DNA of 64,000 bases from Escherichia coli (GCF_003334335.1 NZ_QOWQ01000015.1), one strand, 5' to 3'. Positions 12,806-31,033 are shown, counted from the first letter of the stretch. Made by a program: numbers and translations. Notes: a model not told the origin generated them from the letters alone.

Positions 12806-12890
12806 TGTAGGCCGGATAAGGCGTTTACGCCGCATCAGGCATCTGAGCATGATGCCTGATGCGGCGCTGGTCGCGTCTTATCAGGCCTAC
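12806..12890. repeat. REP/BIME element pair
   Basis: Canonical REP motifs gtaggccggataaggcgtttacgccgcatcaggc and gcctgatgcggcgctggtcgcgtcttatcaggcctac in inverted orientation. Confidence 0.9.
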
Positions 12891-28751: not shown

Positions 28752-29678
28752 TTATTTTCTCTGTCCGTAAATATTAAAAAACAGGCGGTGCGGTTTTCCT
28801 GATTCCAGTAATAATAAGTCGATACCTGAATTAAAGGCGTTAGGCGGGCAACTCATAGGTTCAACTGCCAGTCCCTGACGCTGTAATTTTTCACCGCTAT
28901 AAACCTGCACCCAGAGTTGATCGGAACAAAGGCTTACCGAAAGCGCCTGCTGTGGATGGGTAATGGTCATTTCCCACAAATCATTAGCGGTTTTAAAGGT
29001 GTGGTCGATTTTTGTCGCGGCTATTTTTTTCGCCTGCGTGAAATTTAAATCCAGCTCATCAACGTGGTGAAGCGTTGTCGGATTCGCGTGCTCATCGACG
29101 GCATAAACCTGGTTTGCCGGAAGCTGGAACAGATATTCATCAACAGATGTTAAGTTGCAGGTTAAATAAGGATGAATACCCACGCCATAAGGCGCTGCGA
29201 CAGTGCCGATATTCTGGCTTGCGATCTCAACGGAAAGACCCGTGTGTGCGTTGAGCGAATAAACAACTTGTGAAGCCAGCATAAACGGATAGCCGTAACT
29301 GGGCGGCAGAAAAGCTGTCAGGGTAACGCTGGTGGCGGTTAATTCACTAATTTGCCAGTCTCGCCAGGCAAGCAGCCCGTGAATAGCGGCTTTTGAACTA
29401 TGTTCATTAATGGGTAACTGATATTCCTGCCCCTGATAGCGGTAACAGCCGTTGGCGATCCGGTTCGGCCACGGAATAAGCACTTTACCCAGATGCGCCA
29501 GCGGCATCTCTTCGGGTTTGTGCGGGATGACTAAATGACAACCCTGAAAGGTTAATTCAGCCAGACCAGCACCGACGGTCACAATGGTCGCGTGATAATC
29601 CCCCGCGGCAAGTGAAACGGTCTGTCCACTGCAATGCATATTGGTGATTTGCATACAAGGCACCTTAATTAACGACAT
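28752..29678 (-). CDS. yihR: Aldose-1-epimerase family protein YihR (sulfoquinovose mutarotase)
   Basis: 308-aa ORF; recognised by recall. Confidence 0.9.
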   Translation of the reverse strand: MSLIKVPCMQITNMHCSGQTVSLAAGDYHATIVTVGAGLAELTFQGCHLVIPHKPEEMPLAHLGKVLIPWPNRIANGCYRYQGQEYQLPINEHSSKAAIHGLLAWRDWQISELTATSVTLTAFLPPSYGYPFMLASQVVYSLNAHTGLSVEIASQNIGTVAAPYGVGIHPYLTCNLTSVDEYLFQLPANQVYAVDEHANPTTLHHVDELDLNFTQAKKIAATKIDHTFKTANDLWEMTITHPQQALSVSLCSDQLWVQVYSGEKLQRQGLAVEPMSCPPNAFNSGIDLLLLESGKPHRLFFNIYGQRK

Positions 29679-29713
29679 ACAGCCTCCCGTGAGGCTGATG
29701 TCAAACCCAAAAA

Positions 29714-29780
29714 CTGCACCGGACGGTCCCCTCGCCCCTTTGGGGAGAGGGTTAGGGAGAGGGGAAAACCCGCACCCTAT
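29714..29780. repeat. GC-rich intergenic repeat (Box C-like)
   Basis: Sequence cccctcgcccctttggggagagggttagggagaggggaaaacccgcaccc with internal inverted symmetry resembles Box C family repeats from recall; family assignment uncertain. Confidence 0.45.
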
Positions 29781-29791
29781 TTTCAGATCAG

Positions 29792-31033
29792 TTATTTCGC
29801 ATTAATATCCAGCAGACCCGCTGCAACCGCTGGAGCCATGCCGGGCGCTAACGGGATACGCGGGATCACCAGGCAATGCAGCAGGTGATAAATATCCTGT
29901 TTGCCGTCCCAGACTTTGGTGGTGACCTTATTGTCCGCATCCAGCTCCTGCCACCAGGAACCATTTTCATAGTCCATCAGGTACTTAATGCAGTACTCCC
30001 ACCATGTTTGATACCAGGTTTCATACTGGCGATCGCCAGTGACGGTGTAGAGCGCGTAGGCCGTACCCATTGCTTCGACGATAGGCCAACGTACACGTTC
30101 GCGGACCACCGGTTTTCCTTCCCAGTCAACGGTATAAACAATCCCGTCCGCGCCATCGGGTGCCCAGGCATCGCGCACGGTGGCGTTAAACAGACCTTTG
30201 GCATCTTCTAGCAGCCATGCTGGTGGTTGTTCGCAACGGGCTTCCAGGGCAGCATGGATGTGCAGCATTAAACGGCCCCATTCGATCCAGTGGCCTGGTG
30301 TACCTCCGAACGCGCGGAAGCGATGCGCCGGGTTATCTTTGTTGTAATCCGGCAGCGGATTCCACTGGGTATCGAAGTGTTCGTTAACGCGATAATGATT
30401 ATTTCTGGCGACGTCGTGGATAATCACGGAAGCCACGCGAATCGCGCGATCCAGCCATTTTTTGTCGTGAGTGACGTCATAAACAATCAAGAAAGCTTCC
30501 ACCGCGTGCATATTGGCATTGCCGCCGCGGTACTCTTCGGTTTTGCTGAAGGCTTCGTCCCAGGATTCCAGGCACATCTGCTCTTCTTCGCTCCAGAAAT
30601 ATTTCTCGATAATTTCAATGGTGTAATCGAGCAGCTTGCGCGCTTCCGGGTGACCCGTTGTGACGGCGCTGGCGGCACCCAGCAGAGCAAAGAAGTGTTG
30701 ATAGCCCTGTTTGGAGGCATCCACCACGCCCTCGTCATTCACGCAGGCATACCAGCCGCCATATTTTTTATCACGCAGTGCGCCGTTCATGGCTTTGATA
30801 CCGTGATCAACCAACGAGTAAGCGCCAGGTCGACCCATCGCCGCAGCAACGGAATAAACGTGCAACATACGAGCGGTGATCCACAGATGGGTGCCCATCT
30901 CTTCTTTGATTTGCCCTTTATTGCCTAACCAGCCAAAACCAGTCGGCACTACGGAATTTTTACCAAAATCAAAGATGCGGTCGGTTTCCTGTTCCAGCCA
31001 ACGGTTGTGGCTTAGGGTGTTAAACCATTTCAT
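29792..31033 (-). CDS. yihS: Sulfoquinovose isomerase YihS (N-acylglucosamine 2-epimerase superfamily)
   Basis: Start placed at ATG 31033 ([15 protein letters not shown]..., 413 aa) rather than ORF-track 31048; recognised by recall. Confidence 0.9.

Follow-up and report, generated by a model that had tools for sequence, protein, structure and literature searches.

The GC-rich repeat between yihS and yihR, two genes of the sulfoquinovose cluster of Escherichia coli, raises the question of what it is, how it came to this spacer and whether it acts there. The stretch of DNA analysed (64,000 nucleotides; the window) corresponds to positions 4,040,724–4,104,723 of E. coli K-12 MG1655 (NC_000913.3), a window position being the NC_000913.3 position minus 4,040,723, and the 301 bases around the repeat are 100% identical to K-12 strains. 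The repeat lies within the 113-bp gap at window 29679–29791, and its neighbours are indeed a same-strand pair of the sulfoquinovose cluster, as the first-pass annotation had it. Both are encoded on the minus strand, and the mRNA thus has the minus-strand sequence, with yihS upstream of yihR:

29792–31033, minus strand: yihS (b3880, sulfoquinovose isomerase), the upstream gene in the NC_000913.3 annotation, with its stop codon at 29794–29792
28752–29678, minus strand: yihR (b3879, sulfoquinovose mutarotase), the downstream gene in the NC_000913.3 annotation

Identity and anatomy of the repeat

The 36-nt core of the repeat, CCCTCGCCCCTTTGGGGAGAGGGTTAGGGAGAGGGG at window 29729–29764 (plus strand), is identical in sequence and coordinates (4,070,452–4,070,487, sense +) to TMECO no. 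21, one of 23 MG1655 copies listed in Table 1 of Holder et al. (2015, NAR 43:10126, PMC4666352), where it is classified as type A with one mismatch. According to the same paper, the motif called TMECO had already appeared in the 1990s as BoxC, and Maher's group described it anew under the name PIT elements (PMC4666352). Its published consensus, CCCTCNCCC-N3-6-GGGNGAGGG-N3-GGGNGAGGG[G/T/C/-] (PMC4666352), is matched exactly at 29729–29763, followed by a G at 29764, and the resemblance to the Box C family that had been suggested from the sequence proved right when the consensus was compared. The same copy is catalogued as HPGQ no. 48 of group HPG1, with its midpoint at 4,070,476 between yihR and yihS (Kaplan et al. 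2016, NAR 44:9083, PMC5100583). Membership in the BoxC/PIT/TMECO/HPG1 family is essentially certain, and the yihS–yihR copy is already known: it has been published twice under different names, in a family known since the 1990s. The four names BoxC, PIT, TMECO and HPG1 all denote the same repeat. In its original form, the GenBank record of K-12 listed 33 BoxC features of about 56 bp (range 51–59; PMC5172473), and we found no repeat or BoxC feature in the NC_000913.3 annotation of this region; because the current K-12 RefSeq annotation has no feature for this copy, it will go on being found afresh whenever raw sequence is scanned.

The repeat is also distinct from REP, as had been claimed. The REP-type pattern GCC[GT]GATG[CT]G[AG]CG matches 13 other places in the window (141, 9388, 12840–12854, 15832, 22870, 39297, 53626–53810 and 62636–62650), several of them in close inverted pairs resembling BIMEs, and none in 29679–29791.

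The element had been placed at 29714–29780, and the string quoted for it, cccctcgcccctttggggagagggttagggagaggggaaaaccc, does lie inside that interval, at 29728–29771 on the plus strand, but the homology to other copies is longer. With the 14 remaining type-A copies of K-12 as a leave-one-out profile, nhmmer gave a single match in the window, 29698–29783 (68.2 bits, E = 1.4e-20), and a weak minus-strand match at 29792–29755 (E = 0.012) was discarded as merely the internal symmetry of the family. A 30-nt piece of the repeat matched the window once, against 0.00 matches expected from 100 shuffles. As judged from the alignments, the repeat unit is about 76–86 bp long including the 36-nt core; that it exceeds the core follows from the conserved flanks of the stacked copies. 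Its parts, some of which are missing from alleles without the repeat (empty alleles, below), are the following:

29698–29783, plus strand: whole span of homology to the other K-12 type-A BoxC copies (nhmmer)
29704–29728, plus strand: left flank AACCCAAAAACTGCACCGGACGGTC, with the type-A flank consensus A....AAAAA.G.GC.CG.ACGGTC and high posterior in the nhmmer alignment; missing from empty alleles
29729–29764, plus strand: BoxC/TMECO core, 36 nt, type A with one stem mismatch, an exact fit to the consensus (TMECO no. 21)
29729–29737, plus strand: C-block CCCTCGCCC of the core
29738–29742, plus strand: loop CTTTG of the core
29743–29751, plus strand: first G-block GGGAGAGGG of the core
29752–29754, plus strand: loop TTA (type A) of the core
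29755–29763, plus strand: second G-block GGGAGAGGG, the third block of the core
29758, plus strand: T-to-A substitution giving the third block GGGAGAGGG in place of the canonical GGGTGAGGG; A only here among the 23 K-12 copies
29764, plus strand: final base G of the core
29742–29764, plus strand: G-quadruplex motif of four G-runs, GGGGAGAGGGTTAGGGAGAGGGG, on the template strand for yih transcription
29765–29779, plus strand: right flank AAAACCCGCACCCTA, with the flank consensus GAA.AG..CG.C; missing from empty alleles

The C-block and the first G-block differ from perfect complementarity by one G·A mismatch, which is common to 13 of the 23 K-12 copies. The A at 29758 is a recent, derived point change, as a near-identical E. 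coli allele (in JAEWTL010000022.1) carries the canonical T. The change turns the two G-blocks into a perfect mirror repeat, and the mirror-symmetric GGGAGAGGG-TTA-GGGAGAGGG, the complementary C-block and the four G-runs give a sequence compatible with a triplex or a G-quadruplex; a search of both strands of the 64-kb window for G3+N1-7 x4 found the motif at 29742–29764 and nowhere else. The contig with the T allele, 2.9 kb long and labelled 'MAG: Bacillota bacterium', is 99–100% identical to E. coli yihS–yihR including the BoxC copy, and almost certainly represents E. coli sequence that was binned by mistake into a Bacillota assembly.

Other candidate features at the locus were considered and dropped. 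The segment CCCGCACCC (29770–29778) pairs weakly with the third G-block and forms a second, weaker hairpin in the folds, and it was examined as a fourth block special to the yih copy; it proved to be the usual right-flank motif, GCCCGCAC, with a chance extension, and its hairpin is weak. A mechanically called open reading frame at 29641–29805 (plus strand, 54 aa) had no supporting evidence. A longer stretch upstream, cTGATGaCAAAnnCnAAAAA (window 29695–29713, plus strand), is common to several type-A copies, in which it often directly follows a GC-rich hairpin. The motif CTGATG(A/T)CAAA upstream of several copies might be part of the element, a target preference or microhomology. At yih, a portion of the motif (CTGAT.TGTC) belongs to the ancestral hairpin; at fimH–gntP, the motif is missing from the empty allele.

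Distribution of the family and the two haplotypes of the spacer

The genome search for further copies, one of the checks proposed at the outset, showed the repeat to be dispersed rather than unique. With 86 nt of the sequence as a blastn query, 5,414 of 5,426 complete E. coli genomes had matches; the median genome had 14 places, and MG1655 strain records had 16. A regular expression of the consensus applied to the 18 K-12 sites recovered exactly the 23 published copies and nothing else, and all of these strict copies lie between annotated genes. Published surveys describe the copies as extremely well conserved, which both catalogues take as a hint of function (PMC4666352, PMC5100583), and report no bias in orientation or in the class of neighbouring genes across the family (PMC4666352). 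Holder et al. also found sequence variability around TMECO loci to be higher than around controls in 56 strains (PMC4666352).

The repeat is nearly always chromosomal: only 26 of the 70,890 BoxC places in the E. coli genomes were on plasmids. In a plasmid collection the family was present in 118 of 72,556 records, mostly very large or non-mobilizable plasmids or mislabelled chromosomes; several 'plasmid' records of 4.8–4.9 Mb are evidently chromosomes. Three of 50,697 phage records had matches, all doubtful. These are MG065686.1 and MG065691.1 (Campylobacter phages A18a and A11a) and OR845188.1, with 91–94% identity over about 50 nt; each of the Campylobacter phage records has three BoxC-like places, and the phage matches may come from contamination or chimeric assembly. 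A related G-rich motif was seen on replicons of Azospirillum (35 records), Rhizobium (16) and Sinorhizobium (6). These matches suggest that triplex-type repeats exist outside the enterics, as Holder et al. likewise report (PMC4666352); our view of the taxonomic range is based on the literature and the plasmid search.

At the locus itself, the yihR–yihS junction was present in 3,992 of the 5,426 E. coli genomes, and those without it largely carry the short yihTUVW cassette (PMC12608037). Among the genomes with the junction, 2,248 had the filled haplotype with the repeat and 1,666 an empty one, in which yihS and yihR are intact and separated by a gap of about 66–68 bp, found once per genome. In the mRNA sense, the empty spacer consists of a hairpin (CGACAUA...UAUGUCG, −19.9 kcal/mol, z = −3.98) set between an A-tract and a U-rich tail. 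The spacer of E. whittamii has the same A-tract/hairpin/U-tract design, with a 16-bp stem including A5/U5 and without BoxC; the hairpin survives in Citrobacter sp. wls619 and Superficieibacter electus as well, again without BoxC, and in more distant relatives the spacer is only about 18 nt long. This older A-tract/hairpin/U-tract was compared at four loci (L003, 376–443, minus strand; L024, 1450–1497, plus strand; L026 and L027), with RNA folds of about −20 to −22 kcal/mol, and it has the look of a terminator, weak or bidirectional, or of a stability element. The filled allele of K-12 has about 76 extra bases (29704–29779), placed between the A-tract and the hairpin, and the insertion thus cuts the older hairpin off from its A-tract. 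Two features mark this junction:

29674–29702, minus strand: older spacer hairpin, remodelled in K-12 and not part of BoxC, identified by positional homology to the empty alleles, E. whittamii, Citrobacter sp. wls619 and Superficieibacter
29699–29704, minus strand: TTGACA, a perfect −35-like hexamer read from the sequence where the BoxC left flank meets the old hairpin

In the mRNA sense the older hairpin reads GACAU-CAGCCUC-ACGG-GAGGCUG-U-AUGUC and lies just upstream of yihR. The outgroups lack the repeat and keep the older arrangement, which argues that the filled form is derived; against this polarity stand the small number of outgroup or empty sequences, four, and the frequent recombination of the locus (PMC12608037). 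An alignment of filled, empty and outgroup alleles showed no target-site duplication at the yih site.

The insertion is old. E. coli TCM3e1 (locus 376–494) carries the filled haplotype in a form about 7–10% diverged, in which the third G-block and the right flank have been deleted (23 nt) and the hairpin kept; in the stem of this copy CCCCTCTCCCC and GGGGAGAGGGG pair perfectly, and it exemplifies the degenerate TMECO class. It is this truncated copy, diverged by about 7%, that shows the age of the insertion. The flanking genes of TCM3e1 are as distant from those of K-12 as the genes of E. whittamii are, and the strain may accordingly belong to a cryptic clade of Escherichia. The insertion was probably moved between lineages by recombination, which fits the reported lability of the cassette (PMC12608037).

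Among the other K-12 loci, alternative alleles were informative to different degrees:

pstA–pstB (NC_000913.3 3,908,195–3,908,830 compared with strain STEC299): a clean 92-bp indel with an 8-bp direct repeat, AACCGTGT, at both sides
fimH–gntP: 81 nt replaced by 12 nt in the empty or alternative allele
adk–hemH: about 156 nt replaced by unrelated sequence in the alternative allele, which is uninformative for an empty-site comparison
zntA–tusA: copy almost fixed

The direct repeat at pstA–pstB looks like a target-site duplication in the aligned sequences, and we found no mention of it in the literature searched on the BoxC family. The right flank of this copy contains a third ACCGTGT. The stacked copies had no clear terminal inverted repeats, and the combination of such repeats with a target-site duplication that defines MITEs was not seen at the yihS–yihR site.

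Structure, transcription and competing readings

The C-rich strand of the repeat is the strand found in the yih mRNA, and RNA folding, the second of the proposed checks, predicted an interrupted 9-bp core hairpin in it (−16.1 kcal/mol, z = −2.65). In the fold of the whole spacer (−55.6 kcal/mol, z = −2.64), the old A-tract pairs with the U-run of the element and closes a three-way junction. An intrinsic (Rho-independent) terminator has a U-run directly after its hairpin, and the yih copy does not: read in the mRNA sense, the sequence after the core hairpin is GACCGUCCGGUGCAG, and no U-tail or terminator-like site was found on either strand of 29300–30200. A scan of the same interval for consensus promoters found none, and promoter and terminator scans of the E. 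whittamii spacer returned nothing; the empty allele had one terminator-like site, on the strand antisense to the yih genes. A permissive search of 29500–30000 against Rfam 15 gave two matches at chance level (E = 2 and 4.8; 15 bits where 40–55 are needed).

Published expression data bear on whether transcription crosses the element. The two genes are the third and fourth of a four-gene operon in RegulonDB, yihS before yihR (PMC5100583), and in K-12 grown on sulfoquinovose yihR is induced together with yihS, with a log2 fold change of at least 5 (PMC12608037), and the known CsqR sites are confined to yihU/V and yihV/W (PMC12608037). The joint induction and the location of the CsqR sites suggest read-through across the element. 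Sigma-70 RNA polymerase shifts the K-12 yihS/R fragment in vitro, from which the authors inferred independent transcription of yihR, and on lactose and galactose the expression of yihR is uncoupled from that of yihS (PMC5816610). Polymerase binding and uncoupling together indicate that the spacer may not be transcriptionally inert. The start of yihR is probably not the annotated ATG at 29678 (308 aa) but a conserved one eight codons downstream, at 29654 (300 aa, MQITNMH...): PGAP calls the shorter, 300-aa form in other strains, in E. whittamii the upstream ATG lies in another reading frame, and protein homology to the outgroups begins near residue 5–14. With this start, the true yihS–yihR gap in K-12 would be 137 nt.

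Other members of the family have been studied experimentally. The summary of Hoyne and Maher's work contained in PMC4666352 reports neither promoter nor terminator activity for PIT elements, no effect on RNA polymerase and no block of polymerases in vivo, a block of DNA polymerase being seen in vitro only. Oligonucleotides of other copies form a triplex in isolated single strands only (CD and NMR), and turn into duplex when the complement is present (PMC4666352); in vivo DMS footprinting found no protection and no stable triplex (PMC4666352). HPG2 oligonucleotides fold into a quadruplex in K+ and into a hairpin in Mg2+ or Li+, and likewise form duplex with their complement (PMC5100583).

We consider it probable that the element is a passenger repeat with no dedicated role at yihS–yihR, and at most a mild modulator at the RNA level. 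It is an old BoxC insertion into an A/T-tract, beside the pre-existing hairpin of the spacer, and defines one of two common haplotypes. The C-rich mRNA strand would fold into the interrupted 9-bp hairpin and a weaker second one, closed by pairing of the A-tract with the U-run, and RNA polymerase would read through into yihR, as the element has no U-tail. At most, the hairpin might mildly protect the yihS part of the transcript or alter the ratio of yihS to yihR. The G-rich template strand could form a hairpin, triplex or quadruplex when single-stranded in vitro, whose stable formation in vivo has not been found for the family.

A stronger RNA-level role, the one put forward in the first-pass annotation, would have the hairpins of the C-rich strand act in cis within the yihUTSR transcript as REPs do, blocking 3'–5' exonucleases or marking a processing site, so that the upstream yihS segment is stabilised and yihR expression uncoupled. 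The stable structure on which the idea was built is indeed predicted, for the core hairpin as for the spacer as a whole, and the operon context and the uncoupling of yihR on lactose and galactose agree with it, as does the orientation of the only other intra-operon K-12 copy, at pstA–pstB, which is alike relative to transcription. An effect on processing is nevertheless not favoured and seems to us unlikely: no U-tail and no Rfam match were found, PIT elements were without terminator activity or effect on RNA polymerase in the tests that PMC4666352 summarises, yihR is induced together with yihS on sulfoquinovose (PMC12608037), and 1,666 genomes have an intact yihS–yihR pair without BoxC. The family-wide surveys, moreover, see no orientation or gene-class bias (PMC4666352), and retention of the G·A stem mismatch in 13 of 23 K-12 copies is unlike what selection for pairing would give. 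It is distinctly unlikely, in our judgement, that the element acts through unusual DNA structure, the G-rich plus strand folding as a purine-motif triplex or G-quadruplex when the duplex is opened, stalling polymerases and raising local mutation or rearrangement. The sequence fits the triplex consensus and holds the only canonical G4 motif of the 64 kb, family oligonucleotides adopt both folds in vitro, the quadruplex depending on K+ (PMC4666352, PMC5100583), and the locus has filled, empty and truncated alleles in a recombination-prone cassette (PMC12608037); yet duplex wins in vitro once the complement is present, DMS footprinting saw no protection in vivo, the summarised PIT work found no polymerase block there, and the filled haplotype has persisted through about 7% divergence without being lost. 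The raised variability around TMECO loci, which would suit such structures, may merely reflect gain and loss of the repeats.

The insertion might instead have created an internal promoter for yihR, and this we regard as highly improbable. The TTGACA at 29704–29699 (minus strand) precedes the conserved yihR start by about 45 nt and stands at the junction where empty alleles have AAAAAAAACGACAT, and the band-shift of the yihS/R fragment by sigma-70 RNA polymerase (PMC5816610) would accord with a promoter there. No acceptable −10 follows at 16–19 nt, the best candidates matching 3 of 6 bases, and the scan of 29300–30200 was negative; no transcription start was mapped at the site (PMC5816610), PIT elements lacked promoter activity in the part of the record summarised in PMC4666352, and the band-shift could reflect unusual or AT/GC-skewed DNA.

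Relation to other repeats and possible meaning of the polymorphism

Within the enterobacterial repeats, the yih copy agrees with the BoxC family of Bachellier, Hofnung and colleagues in being GC-rich, partly palindromic, strictly intergenic and dispersed. The core with its near flanks fits the 51–59 bp given for BoxC, whereas the yih unit, at about 76–86 bp, is longer than the nominal 56 bp. Among the PIT elements of Hoyne, Maher and colleagues (2000–2002) and the TMECO copies, it is the only K-12 member with the third block GGGAGAGGG rather than GGGTGAGGG; the variant would put A.A-T for T.A-T in the proposed triplex and is not among the published oligonucleotides. In the HPGQ catalogue, where it is no. 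48, only this copy and the one at pstA–pstB lie inside operons (PMC5100583). That paper draws no link to BoxC; the regulatory or terminator role that it proposes is conjectural, and CD was measured there on HPG2, not HPG1 (PMC5100583).

REP and BIME (PU) elements occupy the same niche of short GC-rich imperfect palindromes in spacers, often at the 3' ends of genes or between genes of an operon, but are unrelated to BoxC in sequence; REPs adjoin BoxC copies at pstA–pstB and fimH–gntP. REPs have the RAYT transposase as a partner and documented mRNA-stabilising, gyrase-binding and IHF-binding roles. For BoxC we know of no RAYT-like partner and no mRNA-stabilising, gyrase- or IHF-binding role. MITEs, ERIC/IRU and RSA elements are, like BoxC, short, multi-copy, non-coding and polymorphic for presence or absence. 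BoxC differs from elements of the MITE type in that the yih site is without a target-site duplication, terminal inverted repeats are not clear and copies are very rare on plasmids and in phages; no partner transposase for it is known to us.

There is a slim chance that the yihS–yihR junction was rewired by the insertion, the A-tract being split from the terminator-like hairpin and U-tract and a new TTGACA formed. If so, the filled and empty haplotypes would represent a natural cis-regulatory polymorphism of sulfoquinovose catabolism. As a separate matter of equally slim chance, the clean 92-bp indel at pstA–pstB with its 8-bp direct repeat would point to spread of BoxC by a transposition-like, enzyme-driven process. 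As a common presence/absence polymorphism within an inducible operon, the two haplotypes offer a natural experiment on whether BoxC acts in vivo.
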